The notes below the pieces were generated by a model. The model searched no databases. It was not told the DNA's origin and saw nothing but the letters and a program-made list of their open reading frames with translations. This document shows positions 858 to 23,506 of a stretch of DNA of 28,436 bases, in pieces. Position 1 is the first letter of the stretch. Each line of letters starts with the position of its first letter. The translations under genes and the position numbers were made by a program. Origin of the DNA: an uncultured Verrucomicrobiae bacterium (lineage in GTDB: Bacteria; Verrucomicrobiota; Verrucomicrobiia; Limisphaerales; JAFGQR01); contig CAWBHS010000041.1 in NCBI GenBank assembly GCA_963788655.1, positions 1 to 28,436 on the forward strand, read 5' to 3'.

Positions 858-902
858 GTAGGATTATACCCCATTGCACGCACCCAGCCCAGGGCGTAGT
901 GT
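858..902 (+). promoter_or_regulatory. 17-bp box GTAGGAT-TAT-ACCCCAT + 22 nt + -10-like TAGTGT
   Basis: Matches the motif and spacing found before six other transcription units in the window. Confidence 0.65.
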
Positions 903-4200: not shown

Positions 4201-7028
4201 CGCTGCAAACGGCTTCGACGGACCCGGTGGATTTGTATTGGCGTAATGGATTTCCGGGAGGAATGACTGCTCGCGTCAACGTCACGGGAGCAACACCCGA
4301 AGCGCGGGCGCGCTCGTTTGTTCGCAGTTTCAAAGATCTCTTGCGGGTGGAGAATCCGGATGCTGAGTTGGCAACGAAGCGAGTCCATTCCGAAGGACTC
4401 GACGATGTCTGGCTGGCTCAGACCTATGGCGGGCTCCCCGTGTTCGGCTCGGAAATCGTCGTCACCCTGGATGGCAATGCGGTCGTCTGCCTGACCGGCA
4501 ACCTCCTGCCCTCCGCGGCGCTCGATGCCCTGGGATTCGATCCCACCCCCGCCCTGAGCTCGGACGAGGCGGTGGAATTGGCCAAGGCGGATCAGAACCT
4601 TCAGCAACCCACCGCGGACCTGGCGGCGACGACTGAACTCATGGTGTACGACCAGCGTCTATTCATCGAAGCGCCGCTTGATCCCCATCTGGTTTGGAAA
4701 GTGGTGATGCGATTTTCCGACCTTGTCCACCTGGTGGACGCGCATACCGGCCAGATCGTGGCCCAGTTGGCCCAGGCGCCCTCGCACGAGTTCGACCTGG
4801 ACATTCAGGACGCCGAGCACGAAGCCAACGCCAACGACGACTGGTGTTTCAACTTGAGCAGCGACACAGACGTGGCGGATGAGGACGATTTCAATTCCGA
4901 CTACAACGGCGACCTGGACGCTGTGCTGGCCAACCGTTTCGCCATCGATTGCTGGCACTACTTCGACCACCATTTCGGCTGGGGCTCCTACGACAACGAC
5001 GACTCGCAACTCGAGATTTTCATTCACACGACCATCGCTCCGGCGGTCGTGGCGCAGTGGAGCAAGCAGTGTGATCTAATCCAGTTCGCCGATGGCGCCG
5101 TGGATTACGATATTCTGGTGCATGAATTCACCCACGGCATCATCGCGAGCACCAGCGGCCTCCAATACCAGTTCCAGTCCGGCGCGCTCGATGAGAGCTA
5201 CGCGGACACCATGGGCGTCATCGCCGACCGCGAACGGGGCGAAGTCGAAAGTGGCCAGCCGATCAACTGGATGATTGGCGAGGGCCGCCGGGCTCCGCAG
5301 CCGACGTTTCTGGTCCGCAATTACGATTTCCCCGGCGCTCCCCGCCCGGGTGGGCGTGGGGGGCAGCCGGACCACATGCGCAGCCTCTGCTGCATGGCCG
5401 TGGGCAGCCCAAACCAGGGTAATGATTTCGGGGGCGTTCATTCCAACAGCGGCATTCCCAATCGCGGCGGGTATTTGATGAGCGAAGGCGGCGCGACCAA
5501 TGGCTTCCTGGTTCGCGGCATGGGCATGGACAAAGTCCGGCTCATGAAATTTGCGGCCATGCGGAATCTGCCGTCGAACGCCGTCTTCACCGATGCGCGC
5601 GCGCGCGAAATCGCTGCCGCGCAATGGTTCAAGGATAACGCCCAGGGCGGCTTCGTGATCGAGGACCTCTGCACGGTGCGCGACGGCTGGGCGGCGGTCG
5701 GCGTGGGTCTCGGCGATTCCAACTGCGACGGGGTGGAGGACAACCGCCAGGACATTGATAACGATCTCATCGCCAATCGGGTGGACAATTGTCCCTCCAA
5801 GGCGAACCCGGACCAGAAGGACAGCGACGGCGATGGCCGCGGCGATGCCTGCGATAACTGCCCGTTGATGCCGAATCCCGGCCAGGAAGACCTGGACGGC
5901 GACGGCCAAGGCGACGTGTGCGACGCCGATCGTGACGGCGATGGCTGTCTGAACGCGGTGGATCAGAATCCGGACTCCAATCAACAGATCATCGGGAGTT
6001 TCCTCGGGCCTTTGTGCAATCCCCAAAGCGGGCCCATTTTCGGTTTTGCGGGGAACGATACCGACCATGACGGTATTCTGGATTGTCAGGACGAGGATGA
6101 TGACGGCGACGGAATCCCCGATGCTATCGACGCCTGCCCAGTGGGCGCGCTGGCCGGCGCCACTCTAGGCCCATGCACGGTGCTCAGAGATTGCCCGCTG
6201 GTTCCCAATGATTGGTGGCGCACCTGCCTGGGCGGTGGCTGCGTCGAGTTATACTCCCGATTTGTGAACGTCATTAATCCCGACCCCACCCGGACGGTCA
6301 TCATTGACACCGTCTCCATCGTGAACCAGACCCTGTACCTGCAGCCCAACACCGGCACCTCTGTGGCCGGTCTCGCCCAGCGAATTGCGCAGGTCGGTCA
6401 GCTTGCCGCGGTCGGCCGCGCGGCGCTCAACTCCGAACCGGGCCGCGTGCGCATCGAGCTTTGGGCGCGGGCGACTGACACCACGCCGGCTCATCTGGTC
6501 GCCATTGTGGGCGAATACGATCCGGCACTTCTGGAGCTGGGCCAGGTGGATTCCGGCCGCTTGCTGGCGCTGACTCCCGGTGGCGACGGCGTCCCGCCCA
6601 CCCTGGGCGCAACTTGGCAGCCCGGCACGGACCCGGCCACGGCCAGTCAGGACAACGATAATGATGGCATGGTGGATGGCTGGGAAATTCAGCACGGCCT
6701 CAACCCCCGAAATCCGGACGACGCGCTCCTCGATTCCGATGGCGATGGCGTGAACAATCTGGGCGAATTCCAGGACGGCACCGATCCGAATGATCCCGCG
6801 AGTGTGTTCCGCATTCTGCGCATCGCGCGGATGGCCGGCGCCGTGCGGATTGAATTCGTGGCCACCCCGGCTCGCCGCTTCCAACTGGAACGGAGTGCCG
6901 GGTTGGGGCAATCCGAATGGACGCCAATTGCCGAGTTGTCCGGCCGCGGCGGCATCGAGTCGCTGACGGATACCGGTCCTGCGGCTGAGAGCCAGGTGTT
7001 TTACCGGCTGAGTTCCATGCCGGACTAA
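1233..7028 (+). CDS. secreted multidomain thermolysin-family (M4) metalloprotease, ~1930 aa: signal peptide, long N-terminal beta region, HYR, 2x IPT/TIG, FTP/PepSY propeptide, M4 catalytic domain, thrombospondin type-3-like Ca repeats, C-terminal FYRL domain; 3 apparent frameshifts
   Basis: Signal MKTSALIPLLLALAG. ORFs 1233, 1550, 2080 and 2469 join with single-base deletions at ~1536, ~2200, ~2537. HYR DTLPPIIQCP...TATDAAGN (~3375-3608); HEFTH (5121-5135), GALDESYAD, DFGGVHSNSGI; DNCP..NPDQ.DSDGDGRGDACD repeats. Confidence 0.9.
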
Positions 7029-7068
7029 AGATTCGGTCTTCACCGGTCAACGGTTGAGTTATGAATAA

Positions 7069-7245
7069 ATGCGGATTTCTCGTCCTGCTGGGCTGCGTTC
7101 GGTCGCAGCCGGCTTGCGGCTGGATTCCTGGCTCATGACCGACAATCTCGTCACGGTGCGGGAATCAGAAATTGATTCCGTCCTTGGCCGGTTGCCGGAC
7201 ACAGCAGCGGACGCTGCGCTCAAACACACGTTTGCACTTTCATGA
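7069..7245 (+). pseudogene. 3' fragment of a PemK/MazF-family toxin gene
   Basis: Reads GLRLDSWLMTDNLVTVRESEIDSVLGRLPDTAADAALKHTFALS*, resembling PemK/MazF C-terminal halves. The N-terminal RP-containing half is absent. Recognised from memory, not searched. Confidence 0.6.
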
Positions 7246-7265
7246 GCAACGTTTGGTTCATCCTC

Positions 7266-7351: not shown

Positions 7352-7410
7352 CAAGGCAAAGGAGGCATGGAGGAATGAGCGACGGCTTCCGAAAGGGTGG
7401 GCGTCCGGCC

Positions 7411-7610
7411 AGCCCGGTTAGGGCGAAAGACAATAGCCCGCCGATTCATCGGTGGGACGCCATGCGTGTTTGGAACGAGTCCCGATAGGGACGAAAGAAA
7501 TCGGGCGCGTCATTCCCAGCATTCTTTCGCCCCTCCGGGGCTTGGGGGATTTTGGATCACGTTAACCCAGCGATAAATCGCTGGGTTATTTTCGGGTGTC
7601 CCGGTGGGAC
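7411..7610. repeat. composite palindromic REP/BIME-like element
   Basis: agcccggttagggcgaaaga and agtcccgatagggacgaaagaa are inverted to ttctttcgcccctccggggct; internal hairpins cccgccgattcatcggtggg and aacccagcgataaatcgctgggtt. Confidence 0.75.
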
Positions 7611-7896
7611 AAACCTAACCGGAGGCGTGGAGAAATGAACGATGACCCGGCTGCTCGAAGGGTGGCTGAGCGAAGTCCGCACGGCGGTGGAGCAGGCAGG
7701 CGAGTTGACGGAGGCGGCCATTCAAAAGCTCGTCCGTGGATTCGGGGGCAAAGGGCGTGAATGAACAGTGCCTTTTTGCCAAACGAACCCATCTTGAATA
7801 CGCCAGGCCGCGTCGGGGGGAACCAGGCCGGATCAAAGCAACCCAACGCGGTGAACCAAGTCAACCCTACAGCGACAGTTCCGGCGAATCGCGGCA

Positions 7897-7985
7897 GGAG
7901 CGCGGCGTTTACGCCGCTTCACCGTCCTATCCCGCAAGCCGCTGGTTGGCCTTTGGTGCTTGAAGCGGCCTAAAGGCCGCGCGCC
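7897..7985. repeat. REP-like inverted pair
   Basis: ggagcgcggcgtttacgccgcttca (7897-7921) and tgaagcggcctaaaggccgcgcgcc (7961-7985) are 22/25 complementary; each arm is itself a hairpin. Confidence 0.8.
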
Positions 7986-8099
7986 TATCTGTGATATGTG
8001 TCGCTGTAGTGTTAAACCCGTTGAGCCAGAGGTGAGCGGTCCCCCTTCCATCGCTCCTCCGAGCCGAATCAGTCGGGGCGGGTCAGGGCGGCCGCGGAG

Positions 8100-8144
8100 G
8101 TAGGGTTTTACCCCATAGCCAAAGACCGCTGCATCCCGGAGACT
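8100..8144 (+). promoter_or_regulatory. box GTAGGGT-TTT-ACCCCAT + 22 nt + GAGACT
   Basis: Box identical to 13091-13107; part of the duplicated GT4 5' region. Confidence 0.65.
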
Positions 8145-8159
8145 GATCCGGACGCAACA

Positions 8160-8501
8160 ATGGAATCACCATCCGAAATTCGAAAGATCGCGTTCCTTGG
8201 CGACTACTTGCCGCCCGAATGCGGCATCGCCACGTTCACGTCCGACGTGCTCCCCGCCGTGGCGGCGGAACACCCGGAGAGCCAGTGCTTTGCCGTGCCG
8301 GTGAACGACCTCCCGGGTGGCTACGAGTATCCGGGCGTGGTGCGCTTCGAGATCGAGGAGCAGAACCTGTCTTCCTATCAACGCGCCGCGGACTTTCTCA
8401 ATATCAGCAGCGCGGACATCGTCTGCGTGCAGCACGAGTTTGGCATCAACGACGGCCCGGCCGGCAGCCATCTGCTGGCGCTACTGCGCGAATTGTGGAT
8501 G
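8160..8501 (+). pseudogene. truncated diverged copy of the first 114 codons of the GT4 glycosyltransferase at 13151
   Basis: MESPSEIRKIAFLGDYLPPECGIATF...LLRELWM aligns without gaps to MEPTSEIHKIAFLGDYLPRKCGIATF...LLRELRM; similarity stops at 8501. Confidence 0.9.
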
Positions 8502-8592
8502 GCTGCTGGTGCAGGTGTTCCTTGGCGAACGAGGATGGTTGTTCAGATGATGTCTCATTCCCGAAACTCTTCGACGCCAGCCGCGGTGGCTG

Positions 8593-9609
8593 GTGTTGAT
8601 CGAGGCGTTGATGCTGGTGGGAGTGATCGGATGGTTTGACCACGCGACCAGCTCGGAATGGAGTTTCTTCCCGCCGTTTGCCTTGCCTATCATCCTCGGC
8701 GCTTGGAAGACCGGGTGGCGGCTGGGCTTTGCCTATGCCTGGCTGAGCGCCGCGGCCTTTTGGGTGGCACATCTCAGCAGCAACCCATATCACACCCACT
8801 GGGGCTTCGCCGTGGCGGTGTTGGGGCGTTGGTTTTACTTCGCCGTCTTCGTGCTGGCCGTGGCCGCGCTGAAGACCAAGTGGGAACTGGACCAGGCGCG
8901 CATCGCCAGCCTCCAACGGGCGGAGGCATTGGAGCGGGAGATCCTTCAGGTCGCCGATCAGGAAAAGGAGCGCCTGGGGAGGGAGTTGCACGATGGTTTG
9001 TGCCAGACGCTGGCGGGAATTTCGGCCCTCAGTGCGACGCTTTCCCGGAGGCTGGCGGCCGGCTCCGAAGTCGTTGCGGCACCCGCTGCCGTTGAAATCA
9101 CCAAACTGTTGCACGCCGCCATCAGCGAAGCGCGCGATCTGGCCCGCGGTTTCGGCCCGCTGGGCCTGGAGGCGGGCGGTCTCGACGCGGTGCTGGCCAC
9201 GCTGGCGGTCAGTCTCCAGAACCAGTTTGGCGTCACCTGCACCATTGAGTGTCCTCAGCCCTTTGTCCGGCTTCGCCATGGGGTCGCGTTGCACCTGTTT
9301 CGCATCGTCCAGGAAGGGGTGAACAACGCCCTGGCTCACGGCCGGGCGCAACGGATCGAAATCAGCCTGAGCCGCCAGGACGGGCAAGGGCTTTTAAGCG
9401 TCCGGGACGATGGGGTGGGACTGCCCGAGGAGGCCCTCCAGCGCGACGGGGTCGGGCTGCACACGATGGCCACTCGGGCGCGCCTGATCGGCGGTGCCAT
9501 CGAACTCCGCCGGCTCACCCCGCGCGGCACGGCGGTCCACTGCACTTTTCCCCTGCCCGATCCGCCCGATACCCTGGACCATTCCGATCATGCACCCGAA
9601 ATCAAGTGA
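8593..9609 (+). CDS. membrane sensor histidine kinase, NarX/NarL-associated type (HisKA_3 + HATPase_c)
   Basis: Hydrophobic N-terminal segments; ERLGRELHDGLCQTL H-box; EGVNNALAH, DDGVG, GVGL. True start may be ATG 8547/8550 with a 1-nt indel (LIPETLRRQPRWLVL is in frame upstream). Confidence 0.92.
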   Translation: MLIEALMLVGVIGWFDHATSSEWSFFPPFALPIILGAWKTGWRLGFAYAWLSAAAFWVAHLSSNPYHTHWGFAVAVLGRWFYFAVFVLAVAALKTKWELDQARIASLQRAEALEREILQVADQEKERLGRELHDGLCQTLAGISALSATLSRRLAAGSEVVAAPAAVEITKLLHAAISEARDLARGFGPLGLEAGGLDAVLATLAVSLQNQFGVTCTIECPQPFVRLRHGVALHLFRIVQEGVNNALAHGRAQRIEISLSRQDGQGLLSVRDDGVGLPEEALQRDGVGLHTMATRARLIGGAIELRRLTPRGTAVHCTFPLPDPPDTLDHSDHAPEIK

Positions 9610-10279
9610 ACACCGCCCGCCGGCCCCGAAGACGATTCTCATCGTGGACGACCACCCCATGCTGCGTCGCGGGCTGGCCAGTCTAATCGCGTCCGAGCCC
9701 GACCTCGCCGTCTGCGGGGAAGCCGCTACCTGCCAGGCCGCGCTCGCGGCCATCCGGGAGCGCGAGCCCGAGCTAGTGCTCGTGGATCTCACCCTCGAAG
9801 GAAGCGACGGCCTGGACCTGGTCAAGGATCTGAAGCTCCGCCACCCGAAGATCCCGGCGCTGGTGCTCTCGATGCACGACGAAGCGACGTATGCAGAACG
9901 GGCACTGCGGGCCGGCGCCCGGGGCTACGTCTCCAAACAACAACTCGACGAGACGATCCTGGTCGCCATCCGCCAGGTGTTTGCCGGTGAGACTTACCTG
10001 AGCGAAAAGCTCAAGGCACGGCTGGCGGCGCGATTCCTGGGTGGGAGCACCCTGGAAACCGGCTCCCCCCTCGCCGCACTCAGCGACCGCGAACTGCAGG
10101 TGTTTCGTTTGCTCGGCCAGGGCCGGGGCACGCGCCAGATCGCGGAAACCCTCCATCTCAGCATCAAGACCATCGAATCCCACTGCGAGCACATCAAGGT
10201 CAAGCTGAGCTTGCAGTCCGCGGCCGAACTCGCTCACTGCGCCACGCAATGGATGGAATCCAGCAGCCGCGGAGGTTGA
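9590..10279 (+). CDS. NarL/FixJ-family response regulator (REC + LuxR HTH)
   Basis: ILIVDDHPMLRRG, LVDL phospho-Asp, LSDRELQVFRLLGQG..IAETLHLSIKTIESH. ATG 9590 overlaps the HK end. Confidence 0.95.
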   Translation: MHPKSSEHRPPAPKTILIVDDHPMLRRGLASLIASEPDLAVCGEAATCQAALAAIREREPELVLVDLTLEGSDGLDLVKDLKLRHPKIPALVLSMHDEATYAERALRAGARGYVSKQQLDETILVAIRQVFAGETYLSEKLKARLAARFLGGSTLETGSPLAALSDRELQVFRLLGQGRGTRQIAETLHLSIKTIESHCEHIKVKLSLQSAAELAHCATQWMESSSRGG

Positions 10280-10300
10280 ATCGACCATTCCGGATACAGA

Positions 10301-10323
10301 TAGGCGGACCTGCCGGTCCGCCC
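10301..10323. repeat. REP-like hairpin GGCGGACC-TGCC-GGTCCGCC, copy 1
   Basis: Same sequence at 10983-11005 and 12724-12748. Confidence 0.85.
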
Positions 10324-10377
10324 AAACATCATCCGCACTTGGTATGACTCCCGATTTCCTCTTCCTTCGGCTCCGGC

Positions 10378-10446
10378 ATGGGGCATTGCCCCATGCCATA
10401 AATGGGGCGTCGCCCTGATGCTTTTGCACCCCGGGTGAGCCACATT
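10378..10446 (+). promoter_or_regulatory. tandem boxes ATGGGGC-ATT-GCCCCAT (10378-10394) and ATGGGGC-GTC-GCCCTGA (10402-10418) + 22 nt + CACATT
   Basis: First box is a perfect 7-3-7 palindrome; spacing to the hexamer matches the other promoters. Confidence 0.7.
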
Positions 10447-10494
10447 TTGCTGATTGATACCAATTAACAATTCGGATGATCTGCCCCCTGAGTC

Positions 10495-10941
10495 ATGGAC
10501 GACAAAAGCTTTTCACCCACACCGCCCGCCCGGCGGCGCATCCTGATCGTGGACGACCATCCCCTGCTGCGCCGCGGGCTCGCCGCGCTCATTAAGAGCG
10601 AGCCCGATCTCACCATCTGCGCCGAAGCCACCACCCAGCGAGGCGGGCTGGAAGCGGTCGCCAGCTCCCGGCCCGACCTCGTCATCACCGATCTCTCGCT
10701 TGCGGACGGCGATGGTCTGGCCTTGGTAAAGGAAATTCGCCTGGCCCAGGAATACCTGCCGGTGCTGGTGCTCACGCTTTACGACGCACCCGCCTACGCG
10801 GAACGGGCCTTCCAAGCCGGCGCCAACGGCTACGTCACCAAGGAGGAAATGGATGAGACCCTGCTGCTCGCGGTTCGCCGTGTGCTCGCCGGGGAGAAAT
10901 ACGTCAGCCCGAAACTCCAGGCCGCGAGCGCGACGACGTAG
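10495..10941 (+). CDS. single-domain response regulator (NarL-like receiver, no HTH)
   Basis: ILIVDDHPLLRRG, ITDL, GYVTK; ends after the receiver domain; paralogous to the RR upstream. Confidence 0.9.
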   Translation: MDDKSFSPTPPARRRILIVDDHPLLRRGLAALIKSEPDLTICAEATTQRGGLEAVASSRPDLVITDLSLADGDGLALVKEIRLAQEYLPVLVLTLYDAPAYAERAFQAGANGYVTKEEMDETLLLAVRRVLAGEKYVSPKLQAASATT

Positions 10942-10982
10942 CCACCATCACGGATCGAAGCACCGGTCCTGCCTGCCACGGA

Positions 10983-11005
10983 AGGGCGGACCTGCCGGTC
11001 CGCCC
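10983..11005. repeat. REP-like hairpin copy 2
   Basis: agggcggacctgccggtccgccc. Confidence 0.85.
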
Positions 11006-11078
11006 AACTTTTTCGCGGACGTGGCAGACAAGAGCGAACCGGCCTCGCCTCGCGTGAAAGGCGCGCCACCCGCCGGCT

Positions 11079-11148
11079 ATAGGGCATTCCCCCACCCCAA
11101 GAATCAGGGCCGCTCCCTGATGCGCGAAGCGGCCCTGTCTGTCAGATT
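11079..11148 (+). promoter_or_regulatory. tandem boxes ATAGGGC-ATT-CCCCCAC (11079-11095) and TCAGGGC-CGC-TCCCTGA (11104-11120) + 22 nt + CAGATT
   Basis: Same tandem layout as 10378-10446. Confidence 0.65.
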
Positions 11149-11172
11149 CCTGGCAGTCTATTTTAAAACACC

Positions 11173-12438
11173 ATGAATACACCGAATCATATCAGTCCCT
11201 TACGCCAGCTCATCGCGAAGGTCTTTAACATCGTCGTCGCTGCATTTTTTCTGGGCTCGACCCTGGCCTCATTCGCCGCCGACCAGGTGGTGCTCAACAC
11301 TGCCGATTCCGGCGCCGGCTCCTTGCGGCAGGCCATTGTCGATGTCGGCAGCGGTGAGACGATCACCTTCGACTCCGCCCTGGACGGCCAGACCATCACC
11401 CTGGGCGGGACGGGAATCCAATTCAACAAGAGCCTGACCATTGATGCTTCGGCCTTGACCGGCGGCCTGACCATCTCGGGCAACAACGCCTCTCAGTTGT
11501 TCCTCATTTACGGCGGAACAACGACAATGAACAGTCTTGCTTTAACCGGCGGCAACGCTTCGTTTCGCGGCGGGGCGATTTCCCTCAACTCCGGAGCCAC
11601 TCTAACTCTCATCAATTCCACTCTCTCAGGCAATACCTCCAGTGACATTGGGGGAGCCATTAACTGCGACGATAGCAACGTCAGTCTCACCAACTGCACT
11701 CTGTCGGGCAACGTCAGCGGAGGGGTGGGAGGAGGCATCGCCAACTTAAGCGGTGTGCTGACTCTCATCCACTGCACGCTCTCGAGCAACGTGGCCGCCA
11801 CTTATGGCGGGGGCTTTTATACCCAAGGCAGCACACCGGTCACGATCATGAATTCCCTTATCGCTGGCAATTCTGCCAACTCGGGAGCCGTCCGCGATAT
11901 CTATCGATCGGGCAGTTTCGCCTTCGTCATCGGCGGCACCAACCTCATCGGCGACAACGCGACGGTCTCCGCCGATTTCCCCGCCGGCCCGCTGGTCGGC
12001 ACGGCGGCCAGCCCGCTCAATCCGCTGCTCGCCCCGCTCGGCAATAACGGCGGCCCCACGCAAACCATGCCCCCGTTGCCCGGCAGCCCGGCCCTGGATG
12101 CGGCCAGTTCCGGACTCGCCACCGATCAACGCGGCGTGGCCCGGCCACAAGGCGGCAACTTTGACATTGGCGCGGTGGAAGTCGTTGTCGTTGCGGCCGG
12201 CCCCACGCTATTGGCGGCCCCGACTCAATTGGGAGACGGATCGTTCCGGTTCACGTTCACCTACGCGACCGGGTTGACCTTCACTGTGCTGGCCAGCACC
12301 AATGCGGCGTCGCTGCCAAACGCGTGGTCCGACCTCGGCCCCGCCACCGAGGCTCCGGCCGGCTCCGGCCAGTTCCAGTTCACTGATCCACAGGCGACGA
12401 CCAGCTCACACCGGTTCTACCGCGTGCGCTCGCCGTGA
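11173..12438 (+). CDS. secreted beta-helix protein with GGAI repeats, choice-of-anchor Q-like domain and C-terminal FYRV domain
   Basis: Signal peptide ending ASFA; DSGAGSLRQAI; GGAI/TLSGN repeats; LAPLGNNGGPTQTM..PGSPALD..DQRG..R..DIGAVE; ends QFTDPQATTSSHRFYRVRSP. Confidence 0.9.
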   Translation: MNTPNHISPLRQLIAKVFNIVVAAFFLGSTLASFAADQVVLNTADSGAGSLRQAIVDVGSGETITFDSALDGQTITLGGTGIQFNKSLTIDASALTGGLTISGNNASQLFLIYGGTTTMNSLALTGGNASFRGGAISLNSGATLTLINSTLSGNTSSDIGGAINCDDSNVSLTNCTLSGNVSGGVGGGIANLSGVLTLIHCTLSSNVAATYGGGFYTQGSTPVTIMNSLIAGNSANSGAVRDIYRSGSFAFVIGGTNLIGDNATVSADFPAGPLVGTAASPLNPLLAPLGNNGGPTQTMPPLPGSPALDAASSGLATDQRGVARPQGGNFDIGAVEVVVVAAGPTLLAAPTQLGDGSFRFTFTYATGLTFTVLASTNAASLPNAWSDLGPATEAPAGSGQFQFTDPQATTSSHRFYRVRSP

Positions 12439-12452
12439 CCGGTGTTGCCTTT

Positions 12453-12612
12453 GACGCACCCGCCTGCGCGGAACGGGCCTTTCGGCCGGCGCCAACGGCT
12501 ACGTCACCAAAGAGGAGATGGATGACACCCTGCTGCTCGCGATTCGCCGGGTGCTCGCCGGGTAGAAATACGTCAGCCCGAAGCTCCGGGCCGGGATCGA
12601 GACGACGTAGCC
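12453..12612 (+). pseudogene. degenerate copy of the 3' end of the receiver-only gene (10783-10943)
   Basis: gacgcacccgcc...ggctacgtcaccaa...aaatacgtcagcccgaa...gacgacgtagcc is in both; this copy has a 1-nt deletion and GAG>TAG at ~12562. Confidence 0.9.
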
Positions 12613-12723
12613 GGGCCATGTCGCTGAGATTGATTTTTCCACGATCCCTCGAACCGATGTTCCGCCTTCAAAAGACCCAAGTCGCCTCACGTGAGAGGTG
12701 CGGGGAATGACCGAAATATAGTG

Positions 12724-12748
12724 GTAGGGCGGACCTGCCGGTCCGCCC
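12724..12748. repeat. REP-like hairpin copy 3 with intact GTAG head
   Basis: gtagggcggacctgccggtccgccc. Confidence 0.85.
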
Positions 12749-13011
12749 AAACTTTCCGCTGATGCTGCCGGGCCACCAGCGGCGTTGGCCAAGATTGACC
12801 AGAACATCCACGCAAAACTGGCCTGGGAACTCGTGACTCACCACGACGCAAGATTCCGGAAGTTTGTGGATCAACTCCGCTCGTCCGCGCAGATCGTCAA
12901 GCATTGAGCCGTTTCGCAAAAGAGGACGGACCCTCAGATCGCCCCGTGGCCCACGAGGCGTTTTTGCTTGCTTGGGGAATGTCGTGCGTCAACGCGTGGA
13001 CGCGAATCTGA

Positions 13012-13035
13012 GGCGGCGCGGCAGCGCCGCCCTGC
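13012..13035 (-). repeat. inverted variant of the same REP-like family
   Basis: Reverse complement gcagggcggcgctgccgcgccgcc keeps the head, TGCC loop and stem, with compensatory changes. Confidence 0.65.
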
Positions 13036-13090
13036 TAAATCCGTCCCTGGAGTGAACGGCCTGCCGGGCCGGCTCTGCTAGCCGCGGGAG

Positions 13091-13135
13091 GTAGGGTTTT
13101 ACCCCATAGCCAGTCGCCGGCAAAGGTCGCACACT
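13091..13135 (+). promoter_or_regulatory. box GTAGGGT-TTT-ACCCCAT + 22 nt + CACACT
   Basis: Directly upstream of the GT4 start at 13151. Confidence 0.75.
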
Positions 13136-13150
13136 GATAGGGACGAAATA

Positions 13151-15547
13151 ATGGAACCAACATCTGAAATCCATAAAATCGCCTTTCTTGGCGACTACTT
13201 GCCGCGCAAATGCGGCATTGCCACGTTTACGTCCGACGTGCTCTCCGCCGTATCGGCGGAACACCCGGAAAGCCAGTGCTTTGCGGTGCCGGTCAACGAT
13301 CTCCCGGGCGGCTACGATTATCCCGAAGCGGTGCGCTTCGAGATCGAGGAGCAGGATTTGACTTCCTACCAACGCGCCGCGGATTTTCTCAACATCAGCA
13401 GCGCGGACATCGTTTGCGTGCAGCACGAATTCGGCATCTACGGCGGCGTGGCCGGCAGCCATCTGCTGGCGCTGCTGCGCGAATTGCGGATGCCCGTCGT
13501 GACCACCCTGCACACCGTCTTGCGCGAACCCAATACCGAGCAGCGGCGCGTCATGCGGGAGTTGATTGCCCGCTCGACGCGGCTGGTGGTGATGACCGAG
13601 CGGGGGCAGCGGATGTTGCGGGAGATTTACCAGGCGCCCGCGGCTCGCATTGATCTTATCCCGCACGGCATTCCCGACATGCCGTTCGCCGATCCCAACT
13701 ATTACAAGGACCAGTTCGGCGTGGAAGGCCGGCTCGTGCTGCTCACGTTCGGACTGCTTTCCCCCAACAAAGGCATCGAGCATGCGCTCAACGCGCTGCC
13801 GGAGATCCTGGCGGAGTTTCCCAACGTCGTTTACATCGTTCTGGGCGCCACCCATCCGAACCTGGTGCGCGAGCACGGCGAGTCCTATCGCTTGAGTCTC
13901 GAGCGGCTGGCCAAGAAGAACAACGTCCAAAAACACGTCATCTTTTACAATCGGTTCGTCGAACTCGAGGAACTGAAGGAATTCATCGGCGCGGCGGACC
14001 TTTACCTCACGCCCTACTTGAACGAAGCGCAGATCACCTCGGGCACCCTGGCGTACGCGTTTGGCGCGGGCAAGGCGGTGATCTCGACGCCCTACTGGCA
14101 CGCGGCGGAATTGCTCGCCGACGGGCGTGGCGTGCTGGTGCCGTTCGGCGACAGCAAAGCCATCGCCCGGGAAGTCATCGGCCTGCTGAACGACGAGACG
14201 CGCCGGCACGCCATGCGCAAAAACGCTTACAAGCTGGGCCGCGAGATGGTGTGGAGCCACACGGCGCGGCTCTACATGCAATCCTTCGAGCGCGCGCGGA
14301 TCGAAGGGGCGGTGTGGTCCCGCAAATCGTTTGCCGTGAAAACCCTGGACCAGGCGCCGCGGGAGTTGCCAAAACTCGAGCTGGAACATCTGTCGCGGAT
14401 GACCGATTCGACTGGGATTTTCCAGCACGCCATTTTCACCGTGCCAAATTTTTCCGAAGGTTACTGCACGGACGACAATGCGCGGGCCTTCATCCTGGCC
14501 GTGCTGCTGGACGAGATGAAGGAAGAACCAGAGCAGGTGCGGACCCTGGCCACGACGTATGCGGCGTTTCTGCATCACGCGTTCAATCCCCAGACCAAAC
14601 GGTTCCACAACCACCTTAGCTTCGAACGGCGCTGGCTCGATGACCAGGGTTCGGAGGACTCTCATGGCCGGGCACTTTGGGCGTTGGGCCTGGGCGTGGG
14701 GCACTCCCCGTATCGCAGTTTTCAGGTCATGTCCGGACAGATCTTCGCTCAGGCGCTGCCCGCCGTGGCGGACTTCAAGTCGCCGCGCGCCTGGGCCTTC
14801 ACCTTGCTGGGCATTCACGAGTACCTGCAGCGGCTGAACGGGGATCGGTTTGCCCACCAGATGCGGGACTCGCTCATGACGCGGCTCATGGAATTGTACG
14901 ACCGGACGGCCCGACCGGATTGGCCCTGGTTCGAAGACGTGTTATCCTACGACAACGCCAAGTTGGCCCATGCCTTGATCCTGAGCGGGCGGGCGACCGG
15001 GCAGGCACCGGTGTTTGAGCGGGGCCTGCAGGCGCTCCGCTGGCTGACAGAAATGCAAACGGCCGAGAGCGGTGATTTCCGGCCGATCGGCAGCAACGGA
15101 TTCTACCCGCGCGGCGGCACTCGCGCGACCTTCGACCAGCAACCCATCGAGGCGCACTCGATGGTGTCGGCCTGTCTCGAAGCTTACCGCGCCACGTTGG
15201 ACCCGCAGTGGTATGCGCACGCCCAGCGCACCTTCGACTGGTTCCTCGGCTGGAATGATCTCGGTTTGGAACTATACTGCTCGGCCACTGGCGGCTGCCG
15301 TGATGCGTTGCACGTGGATCGCGTCAACCAGAACCAAGGCGCGGAATCCACCCTCGCCTTCCTGCTCTCGCTGGCGGAAATGCAGCTTATTCAACCCGCG
15401 ATCACGGTATTCAACCCGCCCCCGACGGAGCCAAACGCCCTCCCGGATCAACGCAGCCCTCTCACTCCGTCCAACTCCCTCAGTGGGGGAGAATGTGACT
15501 TCGAGGCAGATGCGAGGGAACGCGTCCCAACCCCGCTGCCCGTTTGA
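13151..15547 (+). CDS. glycosyltransferase family 4 (GT-B) fused to a C-terminal helical (alpha/alpha barrel-like) domain
   Basis: PRKCGIATF, TFGLLSPNKGIE, QITSGTLAYA, STPYWHA; C-terminal GYCTDDNARA, FDQQPIE, NQGAESTLA; adjacent to a GH130 gene as is usual for this family. Confidence 0.93.
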   Translation: MEPTSEIHKIAFLGDYLPRKCGIATFTSDVLSAVSAEHPESQCFAVPVNDLPGGYDYPEAVRFEIEEQDLTSYQRAADFLNISSADIVCVQHEFGIYGGVAGSHLLALLRELRMPVVTTLHTVLREPNTEQRRVMRELIARSTRLVVMTERGQRMLREIYQAPAARIDLIPHGIPDMPFADPNYYKDQFGVEGRLVLLTFGLLSPNKGIEHALNALPEILAEFPNVVYIVLGATHPNLVREHGESYRLSLERLAKKNNVQKHVIFYNRFVELEELKEFIGAADLYLTPYLNEAQITSGTLAYAFGAGKAVISTPYWHAAELLADGRGVLVPFGDSKAIAREVIGLLNDETRRHAMRKNAYKLGREMVWSHTARLYMQSFERARIEGAVWSRKSFAVKTLDQAPRELPKLELEHLSRMTDSTGIFQHAIFTVPNFSEGYCTDDNARAFILAVLLDEMKEEPEQVRTLATTYAAFLHHAFNPQTKRFHNHLSFERRWLDDQGSEDSHGRALWALGLGVGHSPYRSFQVMSGQIFAQALPAVADFKSPRAWAFTLLGIHEYLQRLNGDRFAHQMRDSLMTRLMELYDRTARPDWPWFEDVLSYDNAKLAHALILSGRATGQAPVFERGLQALRWLTEMQTAESGDFRPIGSNGFYPRGGTRATFDQQPIEAHSMVSACLEAYRATLDPQWYAHAQRTFDWFLGWNDLGLELYCSATGGCRDALHVDRVNQNQGAESTLAFLLSLAEMQLIQPAITVFNPPPTEPNALPDQRSPLTPSNSLSGGECDFEADARERVPTPLPV

Positions 15548-15568
15548 AGCGAGAGGCCAAAATCTAAC

Positions 15569-17024
15569 ATGAACACCGCTACGATTCAGCGCACCAATGT
15601 TGTCCTGCATCCCGACCGCACCCGGGTGCTGCTCCGACCGTTTCTGCTCCCGAACGAGCCGCGCGCCCGGACGATTTGCGGCCAGGTCATGGCGCTGCCC
15701 GAAACCGAAGTCCACGCGCTCTGGAAGCAAGTGCAGGCCGAGTTCGGCGAACGCCACGCGAAAACCCGTGAGTTCCTCGGCCAGCGCTTCGAGCAGGCCC
15801 GCCCCTATCTGAGCACTGACGCGAAGCTCTCCGCGGAACGCGAGTGGTTGCTCGGCGCGTATTTCAGCCACGAGTATTCCCTCGAAGCGGCGGCGCTGTT
15901 CAATCCCTCGATCGTGCCGCACCCGGACCAGTCGGAGCTTCCGCCGGGTTCGCTGCGCTTCATCCTCAGCCTGCGGGCCACCGGCGAAGGACACATTTCT
16001 TCAATCACCTTTCGCGCCGGCGTCCTCGACGTCCTGGGCAACCTCACGGTCAATGTGCCCAGCCGATATTGCCTGGAGCCCGAGCAAGTGCCCAATGCGT
16101 CCTTCGAGAAAGAACTGTTCGAGCGAAAGCTTCGCGAGCTGGGCTTGATCGGGGACTTCACTCGCCAGACCCTCCAGTCCCTGGGCGAGGCGTTTACGCT
16201 GGAGGAATTGCGCGTGGCCGTCGGTCGCGCCACCGAACACCTGGGCGCGCGCGATAGCCAAACCAAAGCCGTGGCCCGCAAAACCCTGATGCTGGCCCAA
16301 TCGAATTACGACGTGCAGTTCGCGCCGGACTCGCGGTTGTCCGAGCGCGTGCTGTTCCCCACCACCCCGTCGCAAAGCAATGGCATCGAGGACGCCCGCT
16401 TTGTTTTGTTCCAGGACGAGGACGGCACCCGGACTTATTACGCGACCTACACCGCCTACGACGGCAAAATGATTCTGCCGCAGTTCATCGAGACGCCCGA
16501 CTTTTTGCATTTCAAGTTCATCACGCTGAACGGTCCGGCGGTGCGGAACAAAGGGATGGCGCTGTTCCCGCGCAAGATCAATGGCCACTACGCGATGCTC
16601 AGTCGGCAGGACAAGGAAAACATCTACCTCATGTTTTCGGATCATCTGCATTTCTGGCACACCGCGCAGGTTCTCCTGGAGCCGAAGTATCCCTGGGAAT
16701 TCATCCAGTTGGGCAACTGCGGCTCGCCGATTGAAACCGAGGCCGGCTGGCTGGTGATCAGCCACGGCGTCGGCGCCATGCGTAAATACTGCATCGGCGC
16801 CTTCCTGCTCGACCGGGACGATCCCACCCGGGTGCTCGGCCGCTTGCGGGAGCCGCTGATCACGCCGAACGAGAACGAACGCGAAGGCTACGTGCCGAAC
16901 GTGGTCTATTCGTGCGGCAGCCTCCTGCACGGTCGCCAACTCATCATCCCCTACGCGATGTCCGACTACGCCACCACCTTCGCCACACTGCTCGCTCGAG
17001 GCGGTGCTGGCGGCGCTGGAATAG
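15569..17024 (+). CDS. glycoside hydrolase family 130 (PH1107-related) protein; +1 frameshift near 16990
   Basis: ALFNPS, NGIEDARF, NKGMALFP, GNCGSP, YVPNVVYSCG. Removing one base at ~16991 gives TLSLEAVLAALE* (TAG 17022-17024), as the duplicate at 20771 confirms. Confidence 0.92.
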
Positions 17025-17087
17025 GCAAACGGAGAGTAGGAATCATCGAGGCCCGGGGCGAACCTTTGGCCACGGCCAGGACCAAAG

Positions 17088-17132
17088 GTAGGGTTATACC
17101 CCATATCCCCCGCCCGCGCACTAGTGTATGCT
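17088..17132 (+). promoter_or_regulatory. box GTAGGGT-TAT-ACCCCAT + 22 nt + TATGCT
   Basis: Good -10; ATG 17139 is at the expected +1 position. Confidence 0.78.
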
Positions 17133-17135
17133 TAA

Positions 17136-20100
17136 ATGATGATTATCAGATTACTTAAATACCTAGCCTCTCGGCGAAGCCGCGCCAGCGCTTGCGCACT
17201 GGTCACTCTAACCGCTGTCCTGGGGACAGTTCCCGCGACCCGGGCCGCCGACACGGAAATCCTCTCCTTCACCCCGGAAGCCTGTTGCGGTCCCGGCAAC
17301 TATGTTTTGCGCGCTCGCGTGCCCAGCAATTCCGTGGTCCAACTCCATGGGCGCGCCAATCTGGCAACCAATGCCGACTGGATCGACTTTGGCGCTCCGG
17401 TGTTTGTCTTGAACCGCGAGGAAGTGGAGTTCTACGTGCCTTACGTGCCGGAACCTAATTCCTTCTTCCGGCTCTCCGCGGCATCTGCGCAAATCTCCTT
17501 GACGGACGACGGCAGTCAATTCCACCTCCAGACGACAAATCCCGTTCCCCTCGGACTGATCCTGCAAGCGGCTGGGGGCACTGCAGGCACGGAGGTGTTT
17601 CTCGTGGGCACGAACTGTGATCCCTTCGCACTGGTCGATCCGATCGATACTACCGCCATTGATTTGGAGGGACTCTTCCGCCAACTGGGTTGCACCGTCC
17701 GAGTGGCCCCGCCGCCGGGCGACACGACCAATTCCACCAGCCGCTTCGCGCTCGATTCTAGTCTGCAAAACGATCCTCTCCCAGAAACACCCGGCGTGGG
17801 TCTGTTGGAAGACGGCCATCCCGGCGATTCCGGCTTCCCCGATGCGGGTGTGGGCGACCTGGATCCGGAACCGCTGCCCACCCATGACAAGGGCCTGGTC
17901 CAGGAGATCCCGCCAGGCCCCGACACCGGCGGGCCTGAAGACGATCCAACCCTGGTCGAACCGGGCCGGCACTTACGGGTGAAAGTGACCCTTCAGCACG
18001 ACGGTGGGGTGACGTTGACTCGCGCGTTCGAGAATACCGGCGACGCTCGCTTGGCCTGGCCAACGATGCCTTTGGAGGACGATACGGTGGTGTGTGTCGT
18101 GCGTTCACCGCTCCACACGAACGATCCCGCCGGAATTTACTTTATCAATGCGCTGGCCGATCCGTTTGAAATCCGCAGCTACGACCCGCCGCCCGAGGGC
18201 CGGACGCACTTTGGGCACCAGGAGTCAATCGCTCTGCGCCTGCCGATTCCCCTGTTGCCGGAAGACACCGATCTGAGCGGACTGTTGGTGGAGTTTCACC
18301 GCGTATTGGCCAATCCGGACGGTGAGATGCTGGATGCAACCGCGTTCGACCGCCATCCCGAACTCTTCCAGTCGTTGGGGCAAATCACCGGCGACGAACT
18401 GGCCCTCTTGCTGCGGTCGGGCGGCGGGCGGCGGGTGGCCCAAGCGCCGTCCAACGCCACGCTGCACACCCTCTATCGCGGCGGTTCGATGGCCAGCAAA
18501 TACAACCTGGTCTTCGTCGCCGACGGTTTCGACGACAGCGCCTTCGACCAACAACGCTTCAGCAACTGGGTCCAAACGGTCGCCCTGGAGAACGTGTTTG
18601 GCCGCGATATCGGCCCGGAGATCATGAATGCCATGAACATCTTCCGCATCGACACGGATTCCGTGGACTCGGGCATCACGCTATCCGACCCCAACAACGT
18701 GGTAACCAACGCCAAGAACACCGCACTCGATTTCCGCTACAATGGCACCTGGGGCAAGTGCTGGATCGACGTTGGTCCCAATGGGCAGCAGCGCCTGGAC
18801 GACATTATTGACGAATTGCTGCCGCAGGCCGACGGCATCGCGGTGGTGCTGAATCGGTTGGCCAATGGCGGCTGCGCCTCCGGCATCCTGGTCCGCCTGC
18901 CCCTGGGAACCACCTTCGCCGACAACTGGGGCACCCTGGCCCATGAGTTCGGCCACTCCTTCGGCAAACAAGGTGACGAGTATTCCTGCGGTTTTGGTGA
19001 ATCACTCACCAACAGCGCCTGCATCACCTACACCGACCCGGAACCCAGCGCCGGCAACCTCACCACCAATCGTTACCGCAAATTCCTCAAATGGGGCGAG
19101 TGGGTTCCCCCGTGGCGACCGCTGCCGACCCCGAAAGACAAGGTGGCCGACATGATCCAGGATGTGGGCGCGTTCCAAGGCGCCACCAAGAGCGCGAGCA
19201 AGTAACTGGTCTTGGCCTCTATCGGCCCTCGTTCGATAGCCGTATGGCGGGCGGCAGTCAGCAATTCAATCCAGTGAATTACAATGCCACGCGCAAGGGT
19301 GCCCACAAATACGCTGCCCATTACTTCTCGCACAACACCGCCGTCGGCGATTTCGACGGCGACGGGCACGCCGATCTCGTGCAGCGCGCGGATCGGCAAC
19401 TCAGCTTGTTCCTGTCCGGTCCGCGCCCGCTCGGCGCGGATGATCCGCTCACGGGCAGCAACCCGCGCTCGGCGGGCACCGTGCTGTTGCCCACCTGGAC
19501 CGCCAACGACCGCATTTATTCCGCCTCCGGCAACAGTTACTGGAAATTCGACCGGGACGACGAGGTGCTGCCCGGCGATTTCGACGGTGACGGCAAGACG
19601 GACCTCTACTGCATCAATCGCCAGGGGTGGTCGCATCGCTACGTGTGCCTGCTCAAGTCCCAAGGCACGAACTTCATTCCGGTCGCCTACTACGTGGACC
19701 AGCTCCCGGGTTGGGGCGCCCTGCGGCCCACGGACGAGTTCTACGTCGGCGACCTGGACGGCGATGGCCGCGATGACTTGATGGTCTTCAACGGACTCGA
19801 ATGGAACATGCCCTACTTCTGTCTTCTGCGCTCAACCGGCACGGCCTTGACCTACCTCAAACGTTACGACAACAACCTGCCGGGCAACCAAATGGGCCGG
19901 CACGAGACATTCCGCATCGCCGATCTCAATGGCGATGGCCGGGCGGACGTGGTGAGCTGGAATACGAAAGATTGGGCCAAGCCGAACCTGGGTTTCTATA
20001 CGTTCAACAATGGCAAGCTGAACTTCGTCACCCGCTACTACGGGACCATCACCGGCCCGGCGGGCGGCGGCTTCAGCTACACGCTGCGCAAACGCGACCA

Positions 20101-20608
20101 ACTCACTTTTGGCGATCTCAACGGCGACGGTCGCACCGACCTGGCCCTCTTCAACGACCTCAACTGGAGCAAGAAGTATCTCACGCTCTTCGCGTGCGAC
20201 GCGTCGGCCCGGCTCCAATTCCTGACCGGCTATGTGGACCAGGTGCCCGGCTGGACGCTGAAGTATGGGGACACATTCTACGCCGCCGACGTGGACGGCG
20301 ACGGCGACAAGGACTTGATCGCCCAAAACACCATAGGCTGGGAGAACCACTACCTCGGTATCCTGCGCTCGAATGGCACGGGACTGTCCGGCGCTGTGCA
20401 GCAGATGACGGCTTTCTCCGGAAAAGGGCTCAACGTCGTGTACGGCACCGTGGCCGATTTCCACGGCAACGCCGGCTGGGAAGACCTCTTCCTCTACACG
20501 ACCCAGCGCCTGGTCCTGATCCGCAGCCAGAACACGAAACTGAGCGTGGAAGCTGTTTATCCGGACTTCATCCACAACCACCGCTTCCACGCACAGGGCT
20601 GGTGGTGA
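17136..20608 (+). CDS. secreted M64 (IgA peptidase)-like zinc metallopeptidase with C-terminal FG-GAP/VCBS repeats; frameshift at ~19204-19213
   Basis: Signal peptide ending ATRA; YNLVFVADGF, HEFGH (18942-18956)..GDEY, KWGEW. Removing two bases gives KYWSGLYRPSFDSRM and joins the ORF with six GDFDGDG-type repeats. Confidence 0.85.
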
Positions 20609-20645
20609 GCAAAACCAATTATCGGTTGAATGCCATCTCCGACTC

Positions 20646-20670
20646 GGGCGGCGTACTGGGTGCGCCGCCC
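20646..20670. terminator. GC-rich hairpin after the peptidase stop (terminator or REP-like)
   Basis: gggcggcgtac-tgg-gtgcgccgccc; no U-tract. Confidence 0.4.
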
Positions 20671-20770
20671 AGCCTGTTGGCACGTGTTCCAGTCGCCGAC
20701 CTTGATAACAAATTGCCGAGCTGCCATAAAATCATCTGGCAAACGAGACACGGCAGTTTGCGAATCGAAA

Positions 20771-20894
20771 GTGGTCTATTGTTGCGGCAGCGGCAAGCAC
20801 GGCCACCAACTCATCATCCCCTTACGCGATGTCCGACTACGCCACCACCTTCGCCACGCTCTCGCTCGAGGCGGTGCTGGCGGCCATGGCGTAG
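20771..20894 (+). pseudogene. diverged copy of the GH130 3' end (16901-17024)
   Basis: About 15 differences in ~125 nt by hand alignment; both copies end at the TAG. Confidence 0.92.
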
Positions 20895-21061
20895 AATCTG
20901 GAGAACCGAAACGGCCAACCACATCGAACGGCTCCTGGCCAGCGCGGCGGATGAGGCCCAACCGACTGCGGAGCCAGACCGGAAACAAGTGTGATCTGTA
21001 GTCAATCAACAGCAATCAGTAATCAGTTGGAACATTTCAGCGTGCGAGGTGGTTCACCCCC

Positions 21062-21976
21062 ATGATTTGGTCGCCGCTGAACCTCACTGTCCGGGTCGGC
21101 TGCCACCTGGCCTACCAAACCACCGTCCCCACGCCGGTGCTGTTTGTGCTCAAACCCCGGCTCGAAGGCCAGGTGCTGGTGATGCAGGAGAAGCTCTCGT
21201 TTGGCATTGGGCAGCCTGCGTATGAATTTCAGGACTCGCATGGCAACATCACCTCTCGCTCGATGTTGATGCCGGGGGGCAACGACATTCAGCATGATGC
21301 GCTGGTCGCCGTTTCGGCTCAGCCCGACAACCGGGAAGTGCTGGGACCGATTCAGCCCGTGGCCCAACTCCCTTCCGAGCTGTTGCGCTACACGTTACCC
21401 AGCCGCTATTGCGATTCGGATAAGCTGATGAATTTCGCCTGGGAACAATTCGGGCAGATCCCTCACGGCCTGCCGCGCGTGCAAGCCATCTGCGATTGGG
21501 TCCACAAGAATATCGAATACCGCTACCTGTCCGGCCGGGCGGACCTCTCCGCCTCCGAAGTCATCGAACGGCGCTTCGGGGTTTGCCGCGACTTCGCCCA
21601 TGCGGCCATTGCGCTGTGTCGCGCCTTCAATCTACCCGCCCGCTACGTCACCGGACACCTGCCGGACATCGGCTGCGCCGACGCGGGGACGCCGATGGAT
21701 TTTCATGCCTACTGCGAAGTCTATCTCGGCCAGGACTGGCTGACTTTCGATCCGCGTTTCAACGTTCCGCGCATTGGCCGGGTGAAGGTCGCGCACGGCG
21801 CGGACGCGGTGGATGGCGCGTTTGCGACGATCTATGGCGAGGCCAAGCTGACCACGTTTGAAGTGTGGGCGTATCAGGTGAATCCGCTGGAAGTTTCCGT
21901 GGGCGATCCCATTGATTTATCCCAACGCCTGGATGGCCAGCCGACGGTGCGACTCAGTGCGTCAGGACCACCATGA
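21062..21976 (+). CDS. transglutaminase-like family protein
   Basis: PSRYCDSD, GVCRDFAH (catalytic Cys), DFHAYCEVY, TFDPR. Confidence 0.93.
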   Translation: MIWSPLNLTVRVGCHLAYQTTVPTPVLFVLKPRLEGQVLVMQEKLSFGIGQPAYEFQDSHGNITSRSMLMPGGNDIQHDALVAVSAQPDNREVLGPIQPVAQLPSELLRYTLPSRYCDSDKLMNFAWEQFGQIPHGLPRVQAICDWVHKNIEYRYLSGRADLSASEVIERRFGVCRDFAHAAIALCRAFNLPARYVTGHLPDIGCADAGTPMDFHAYCEVYLGQDWLTFDPRFNVPRIGRVKVAHGADAVDGAFATIYGEAKLTTFEVWAYQVNPLEVSVGDPIDLSQRLDGQPTVRLSASGPP

Positions 21977-23459: not shown

Positions 23460-23506
23460 ATGGGGTAAACACCCCATAGCACAACACCGGGTTAGGGGAC
23501 TATTTT
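23460..23506 (+). promoter_or_regulatory. box ATGGGGT-AAAC-ACCCCAT + 23 nt + TATTTT
   Basis: Perfect 7-4-7 palindrome; ATG 23513 is at the expected +1 position. Confidence 0.72.

Follow-up and report, generated by a model that had tools for sequence, protein, structure and literature searches.

How can blocks of ordinary chromosomal genes come to lie between diverged duplicates of the ends of neighbouring genes when no recombinase is in view? This question is raised by contig CAWBHS010000041.1 of an uncultured Verrucomicrobiae bacterium, assembled as GCA_963788655.1 (genome G000 below). The window analysed is this whole contig (C41; 28,436 bp), part of a draft genome of 8.96 Mb in 115 contigs that is 86% complete with 5.6% contamination. 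Some 13 kb of it hold three pairs of direct repeats, each consisting of the end of a full gene and a cut-off copy of that end, here called a stub. Judging from their sequences, we read each pair as two diverged functional homologues that were brought together, and not as a local copy that then decayed.

Three nested pairs of gene-end repeats

The genes and the three repeat pairs described in this section lie on the forward strand. Pair A duplicates the promoter and 5' end of a GT4 glycosyltransferase gene (8091-8501 and 13081-13492) with 85.4% identity across 412 nt, 12% divergence in the coding part and weak similarity extending outward to 8074 and 13065. The upstream copy, A1 (8074..8501), is the stub and comprises a promoter-like box (8099-8117), an ATG at 8160 and GT4 codons 1-114. 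The downstream copy, A2 (13065..13492; box 13090-13108), is the promoter and 5' end of the full-length GT4 gene (13151..15547). Between them stand genes for a histidine kinase with HisKA_3 and HATPase_c domains (8593..9609), a NarL/LuxR-type response regulator with REC and GerE domains (9494..10279, the real start probably near 9590), a receiver-only protein that corresponds to a NarL-type regulator ending in its linker (10495..10941), and a choice-of-anchor Q domain protein whose homologues align up to the last residue (11173..12438). Pair B, inside this block, repeats the 3' end of the receiver-only gene on either side of the Q gene (B1, 10783-10943; B2, 12453-12612) with 90.7% identity across 161 nt. 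Its similarity resumes, past a spacer with indels, in a 22-nt GC-rich hairpin followed by a T-run (10980-11019 and 12723-12762; 88%). Pair C repeats the 3' end of the GH130 gene (15569..17158) on either side of an M64 peptidase-like/FG-GAP gene (17136..20608), at 16896-17014 and 20766-20884, with 90% identity across 120 nt, and continues to the stop codons at 17024-17026 and 20892-20894, so that C1 spans 16896-17026 and the stub C2 20766..20894. To the right of C2 lies a transglutaminase-like gene (21062..21976). Domain labels come from Pfam matches on the 20 main and 12 gap open reading frames (ORFs) of the window, and they uphold the gene identities given in the initial annotation for the kinase, the regulator, the receiver-only and Q genes, GT4, GH130, M64 with FG-GAP, and transglutaminase.

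That annotation had reported the three repeat pairs from the letters alone. Alignment and a genome search confirm them at these positions and place them on this contig only, with no further match of any of the six copies in the 8.96 Mb genome. Such pairs are also unusually dense here. A self-comparison of the genome for direct, local, low-copy pairs (100-700 nt, 78-96% identity) returned 65, three of them within these 13 kb, where about 0.1 would be expected by proportion. Other low-copy direct pairs in the genome likewise match a gene end in a long ORF with a second copy in a short ORF at a distance of a few kb (C60:360916/365843, C81:93927/96819, C90:152620/163388 and C50:7354/12782), and gene-end stubs may therefore be common in this organism.

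The edges of the repeats follow a consistent asymmetry. Outer edges fall at the limits of gene modules: 8-25 nt before the box in A, just past the terminator in B and at the stop codon in C. The initial annotation had both 3' fragments ending at the stop codon or 2 nt past it, which holds for C; similarity in B continues to the terminator hairpin. Inner edges (J1-J3) cut through genes, namely GT4 at codon 114 and the receiver gene and GH130 at 160 and 124 nt, respectively, before their stop codons, and they leave the cargo genes whole. GT4 similarity stops about 90 nt before the kinase start, in what is then the 5' leader of the kinase gene (J1; 8502..8592), B2 begins about 14 nt past the Q stop codon (J2), and C2 begins 157 nt after the FG-GAP gene (J3). 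A full homologous gene adjoins each block on one side. This asymmetry is expected if the same gene, present in two different contexts, pairs and recombines: the outer edge would mark where the homology of the two contexts ends, and the inner edge would mark an illegitimate joint or the point at which a circle was closed.

No recombinase domain was found by Pfam in the 32 ORFs of the window, and none of the 20 Phage_integrase matches in the genome is on this contig, which agrees with the earlier report that no recombinase was in view. Inverted repeats of at least 40 nt were likewise not reported in the window, shorter attC-like structures not having been modelled.

Divergence of stubs and full copies

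The stubs had been described as decaying fragments, each paired with an intact gene. Truncation of A1, B2 and C2 is clear, and the decay is mild. The reading frame of A1 stays open until 8639, B2 has one 1-nt deletion and one GAG-to-TAG change, and C2 has one 1-nt insertion and ends in AMA-stop. The supposedly intact copy in pair C is itself shifted: relative to all 13 aligned GH130 orthologues, all but two of which end in Ala-Met-Glu-stop, C1 carries one extra base, which puts its last ~12 codons out of frame and carries the ORF past the orthologous TAG (17024-17026) to 17158.

If a fragment has had no function since the copying event, it should accumulate changes at two to three times the rate of its constrained partner. 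Relative rates were compared by asking, at each site that differs between the copies of a pair, which copy departs from the outgroups; this is a simple outgroup comparison with small numbers. Copy-specific changes number 23 in A1 and 29 in A2, and 6 in B2 and 7 in B1, the latter with a distant outgroup (the receiver of the regulator). Summed over the three pairs, stubs carry 41 such changes and full copies 40. A maximum-likelihood tree of 54 sequences of GT4 codons 1-114 joins A1 and A2 as sisters to the exclusion of all relatives (ultrafast bootstrap 99), on branches of 0.084 and 0.078. By a tally of the site list, the 19 coding changes in A2 include 13 at third codon positions and the 17 in A1 include 8; A1 does carry a few replacements at residues conserved across all relatives. 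Because the counts are equal and the branches similar, the stubs, at least in A and B, mostly diverged under constraint, inside working genes. For these two pairs we conclude from the alignments that most of the 9-15% difference would have arisen in working genes of two sister lineages or paralogous loci, with truncation a late event. Along repeat A there is a possible switch near codon 74, with outgroup-like sites at 26:16 on one side and 3:7 on the other; by a rough Fisher test (~0.08) it is not significant.

Homology-anchored insertion as a possible origin

One-sided homology traps foreign DNA, and when a circle integrates by a single crossover, the homologous piece ends up at both edges of the insert. 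Homology-facilitated illegitimate recombination and Campbell-type insertion-duplication have reportedly been described in transformable bacteria by de Vries and Wackernagel (2002) and Prudhomme et al. (2002), as laboratory events with known donors and sequenced joints. The homologous anchor on one side is found here as well; unlike those laboratory events, this locus has no donor that could be found.

The repeats, their edges, the equal divergence rates and the absence of a recombinase are direct observations, from which we infer homology-anchored insertion-duplication between gene versions about 9-15% apart, and we give this account an even chance of being right. Donor DNA would have carried a gene block together with a piece of a conserved neighbour (the GT4 5' end and promoter, the receiver 3' end and terminator, or the GH130 3' end). 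That piece would pair with the resident copy, and fixation would take one exchange within the shared piece plus one illegitimate joint. The route could be either a circle integrated via a single crossover or linear DNA joined by homology-facilitated illegitimate recombination. In either case, a working gene would be left next to the block, with a truncated copy of the gene end on the far side of the block, and no site-specific recombinase would be needed. The proposal made initially, that the island accretes modules by using conserved gene ends as homology arms, thus survives in its geometry, which fits recombination without a recombinase. Repeated, integron-like accretion is not supported; no stub was seen at about 95 related loci.

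The number of events may also be smaller than the three independent uptakes first proposed. A1 and C2 may be the two ends of one resident operon (upstream region, box, GT4, GH130, transglutaminase). The interior of this operon, from GT4 codon 115 to 124 nt before the GH130 stop, would have been replaced by a single 12.3 kb block (8502-20765) carrying the kinase, regulator, receiver and Q genes, its own box, GT4 and GH130, and the box with the M64/FG-GAP gene. The similar divergence of A (12% in the coding part) and C (~10-12%) fits such a replacement; their differing decay ratios fit it less well. Pair B, inside the block, may be a separate local event. The idea that B too was of foreign origin is set back by its hairpin, which occurs only at this locus, in three serial copies, and points to local paralogy.

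It follows from the structure that recombination between a stub and its partner would release the cargo as a circle, leaving one hybrid gene in place. A further reading is a cassette system without a recombinase, in which modules with box promoters are taken up, popped out as circles and re-integrated, with gene ends, and possibly the 19-21 nt box, as portable sites. We regard this as rather unlikely; if true, the island would behave like an integron without integrase or attC. For now, the case is a well-described lead, and the mechanism is not demonstrated.

Comparison with related loci

Related loci were screened with all window proteins and with blastn in 80 metagenome contigs (70-88% GH130 identity) and about 15 genome loci of the order. 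GT4 and GH130 form a tight pair in every related locus examined, and their surroundings vary widely. The closest parallel to the full copy is metagenome locus L055, which matches window 15587-17105 at 87%, that is, GH130, a 60-nt spacer and the box at 17087..17105. The match ends at the last base of the box, and the genes that follow differ from those of the window. This comparison indicates that the order of GH130, spacer and box in the full copy belongs natively to a lineage, and that the genes after the box vary by lineage. Other relatives also carry different genes downstream of GH130, with or without the box, and none of them has the stubs. In G037, GH130 adjoins a transglutaminase gene in convergent orientation. 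The full GT4-GH130 pair shows uniform identity along its length when compared with G001 and G004, with no mosaic shift, and a hidden GH130 stub was looked for and not found upstream of the box module on contig C35.

Two further comparisons concern the neighbouring genes. In G001, a congener, the genes upstream of GT4 are a hybrid kinase and a CheB-CheR-PAS fusion, orthologous to C18:790-9428, and the last 7.4 kb of C18 are 99% identical to window 1-7255. It is therefore plausible that A1 occupies the ancestral GT4 position, provided that C18 adjoins C41. G021 has genes for a kinase (49% identity) and a regulator (45%) directly upstream of one for a 2186-aa choice-of-anchor Q protein. This is the only such case, and the Q domain is a widespread repeat domain. 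By this parallel, the association of kinase, regulator and Q is probably native rather than chance cargo.

A decayed GT4 gene was also seen elsewhere in the order. At L027 (G026:C291, 6985-8093), a frameshifted and truncated GT4 5' pseudogene lies between alaS and an AsmA-like gene, and it is 83-85% identical to the full GT4 of the same genome on other contigs.

A candidate box promoter

Box motifs stand before several of the modules at this locus. The strict form, GGTAGGGTT(A/T)TACCCCATA, occurs in the window at 857, 8099, 13090 and 17087 only and 14 times in the genome, always on the + strand, on contigs C41, C42, C35, C11, C18 and C19. The motif is bipartite and promoter-like, with GGTAGGGTT(A/T)TACCCCATAGC, a gap of about 16-18 nt and then usually a (C)GTAGCGTG-like element; no literature match was found for the motif string. 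A box precedes GT4 in G001, G004 and G019, and one also lies downstream of GH130 in 7 of 83 related loci with enough downstream sequence, as well as in G001. Genes behind the box, here or in relatives, include HSP20 (L055), a DnaJ C-terminal domain protein, TrkAH, an N-type ATPase operon and MlaDE. On the strength of this gene set, we read the box as a candidate promoter or operator of a small stress-type regulon of Verrucomicrobiota.

The initial annotation gave each cargo its own box promoter, and this did not hold. Among the cargoes, a strict box stands only before the M64/FG-GAP gene. The kinase and regulator have none of their own and are positioned behind the duplicated GT4 box, which means that they now lie downstream of a copy of a predicted stress-type promoter. 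The receiver-only and Q genes have only box-like variants, visible by eye around 10378-10398 and 11078-11100. Two near-perfect palindromes, at 10378-10398 and 23460-23483, have the form ATGGGG-N5-CCCCAT and resemble the core of the box; one of them lies upstream of the receiver-only gene.

Weighing the explanations

Local segmental duplication, tandem or by template switching, with later deletions leaving the stubs, is a possible account of the locus, if not a probable one. It explains pair B best: the receiver region is a series of paralogous units (regulator plus hairpin, receiver plus hairpin, stub plus hairpin), the hairpin is confined to this locus, and the regulator and the receiver-only gene share 68% identity in their receiver domains. 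The mutual closest relationship of A1 and A2, the threefold excess of changes in C2 and a genome rich in 2-7 kb duplicates, with its 65 local repeat pairs, agree with it too. For A and C, however, it requires several full copies that were not observed, and two or more additional deletions for each pair. It also gives no reason why the outer edges should fall on a promoter, a terminator and a stop codon, and the faster change of stubs from birth that it predicts is absent in A and B. The box promoter itself has been considered as the exchange point, with box-plus-gene modules shuffled at the 19-21 nt box without an integrase. Similarity does begin or end at boxes in three comparisons (window and L055 at 17105; C35:6385 with C42:15598; repeat A 8-25 nt before its box), the 14 boxes share one orientation on a few linked contigs, and the GH130-side box is followed by different genes across lineages. 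Yet the conserved part of any gene unit starts with its promoter, so that edges at boxes are expected anyway, J1-J3 are not at boxes, and the informative cases are only three; we consider such shuffling quite unlikely.

A chimeric contig, joining paralogous loci or co-assembled strains, is unlikely to much the same degree. Suspicion is warranted by a draft of 115 contigs, by 98-99% twins of the first 7.25 kb and last 1.4 kb of the window on contigs C18, C19 and C42, and by three frameshifts on the contig. A chimera arising in the assembly graph would, however, switch within shared sequence, whereas the joints here lie at the end of similarity, beside unrelated DNA; the longest identical run between A1 and A2, read off the alignment, is only about 26 nt, and the genome has no second GT4, GH130, kinase, Q or M64 gene to serve as the other parent. 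Strain mixture across the genome was rejected as a main cause, as duplicates of at least 2 kb total less than 0.3 Mb and are located at contig ends. That a recombinase encoded elsewhere integrated the blocks site-specifically, with att-like duplications restoring the target gene, is very unlikely. Islands of this kind do leave direct repeats of a gene end, one copy of which is intact, and tyrosine recombinases are encoded on other contigs (the 20 matches mentioned above). But none of the three blocks contains or adjoins an integrase, the repeats are 120-430 nt long, 9-15% diverged and without a core common to the three pairs, inverted repeats of at least 40 nt were not reported in the window, and the cargo consists of ordinary chromosomal genes.

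Several observations weigh against homology-anchored insertion, the explanation preferred here. All evidence comes from a single contig of a draft genome with three frameshifts within 13 kb. Pair B, as one member of a local series of three receiver-plus-hairpin units with a hairpin confined to the locus (copy 1, 10298..10337, behind the regulator gene at 10302; copies 2 and 3 within repeat B), fits local duplication equally well. In pair C, 12 changes fall on C2 and 4 on C1 (8 and 4 events when adjacent changes are merged), and only in this pair is there the 3:1 excess that a fragment decaying from birth should show, in small numbers. Among the roughly 95 related loci there was no second GT4 or GH130 stub, no close kinase-regulator-receiver-Q block upstream and no M64 gene downstream. 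Nor was a donor, an empty site or an alternative allele found among them, and the comparison of orthologous loci that had been suggested as a check, for empty sites or other cargo between the same repeats, turned up neither these nor the same cargo. The closest M64/FG-GAP homologues in a protein search of 150 genomes of the order are 36-41% identical, the best being 41%, and scans of genome contigs gave no close relative of the M64 gene or of the kinase (best kinase match 34%). The link between C18 and C41 is itself indirect, as C18, C19 and C41 each have a version of the 7.4 kb block. The competence genes comEC and dprA are present in the genome, but they are also present in 10 of 14 control genomes and are therefore no proof of competence.

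Relation to known systems

Growth of gene arrays by displacement without a recombinase is not a new idea. It has been published for Rhs loci and for type VI secretion system (T6SS) loci (PMC2935791, PMC5361080). According to Jackson et al. 2009 (PMC2935791), partial cores in Rhs loci form direct repeats of varying length behind the full gene, and the proposed intermediate is a circle that holds a conserved piece plus new DNA and integrates by a single crossover. The likeness to Rhs tip displacement lies in the order of parts, that is, a full gene, cargo and then a partial copy of the conserved part, with no recombinase (PMC2935791). The differences are that the genes here encode a GT4 glycosyltransferase, a glycoside phosphorylase-like enzyme and a receiver instead of polymorphic toxins, that the stubs, which end at a stop codon or terminator, have neither an alternative tip nor an immunity gene, and that the repeats are 85-91% identical, unlike the near-identical ones of Rhs. 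For the T6SS effector-immunity arrays of Vibrio cholerae, Kirchberger et al. 2017 (PMC5361080) propose sequential displacement by homology-facilitated illegitimate recombination, and they compare the arrays with integrons while noting the absence of an integrase. As in the present model, one side is anchored by homology and the other is joined illegitimately (PMC5361080). The arrays differ in being known from many strains with alternative alleles, in contrast to one contig and no alleles here, and in retaining whole immunity genes where this locus retains cut gene ends. Pair A is the mirror image of both the Rhs and the T6SS displacements, as it lies at the 5' end and includes the promoter.

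Integrons and target-restoring islands are a more distant comparison. Serial gene blocks bounded by short repeats, and direct repeats of a gene end with one copy of the target gene intact, are found both there and here. However, none of the 32 ORFs encodes an IntI-type integrase, no integrase sits at a block end, no attC- or attI-like site was found with inverted repeats of at least 40 nt considered, and the blocks are bounded by gene ends instead of a shared site. The M64 and GT4 modules have boxes of their own (17087 and 13090), unlike the mostly promoterless cassettes of integrons, and the repeats are much longer and more diverged than those of integrons or integrase islands. The locus is thus neither an integron nor an integrase-borne island.

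What sets this locus apart is the involvement of metabolic and regulatory genes without tips or immunity genes, the 5'-end promoter case, the 9-15% divergence and the three nested scars in 13 kb. A literature search for xenologous displacement with remnants returned nothing relevant. If the joints are real, the locus would be a natural case, outside polymorphic toxin loci, of gene blocks trapped by one-sided homology, with three scars in 13 kb that include a 5'-end/promoter scar rewiring a kinase-regulator pair onto a stress-type promoter. The displacement-array mode of growth would then also act on ordinary metabolic and regulatory genes in an uncultured phylum, and each repeat pair would make its cargo excisable as a circle able to integrate in relatives.

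Neighbouring genes and other repeats

The remainder of the contig carries further duplicated segments. At its left end, two ORFs without a family match precede an M4 peptidase gene (2469-7028; family match). This gene, 1519 aa in length, lies in a block of 7.3-7.4 kb that is present at window 1-7255, C18:9783-17037 and C19:168-7417 with 98-99% identity. The surroundings of the C19 copy are unrelated and of housekeeping type: behind it come a 1.6 kb element, which occurs on at least six other contigs and often at contig ends, and after that hisS and sucD.

Frameshifts affect three genes from GH130 rightward. Besides the one in GH130 (~16990-17000), the M64/FG-GAP gene is in two frames, split near 19191-19214, where its three full-length homologues are single ORFs of 1171-1187 aa, and the gene for a cardiolipin-synthase-like PLD protein is shifted near 22430. 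Each is either an assembly indel error or a mark of a real pseudogene. The PLD gene follows the transglutaminase gene, and further right lie a radical SAM gene, an M50-CBS-dodecin gene and the gene for the ATP synthase beta subunit.

The transglutaminase gene has a 99% identical second copy on C35. The match of window 21061-21983 with C35:12364-13286 starts around codon 3 and ends 8 nt past the stop; the flanks are wholly unrelated, which suggests gene conversion or a very recent copy of gene size. On the same contig, behind TrkA, a remnant of an M50 peptidase gene (C35:16597-17032) consists of two pieces that are 93-94% identical to window 25399-25627 and 26124-26333, and it is a further sign of paralogous island segments decaying differently.

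Two families of shorter repeats lie between the M4 peptidase gene and A1. A 200-nt repeat at 7409-7610 has five more copies, and within it Rfam places an Acido-Lenti-1 RNA match at 7411-7456 on the minus strand, barely over the gathering score. A 155-nt repeat at 7859-8015 has more than 25 copies across the genome at 80-96% identity.

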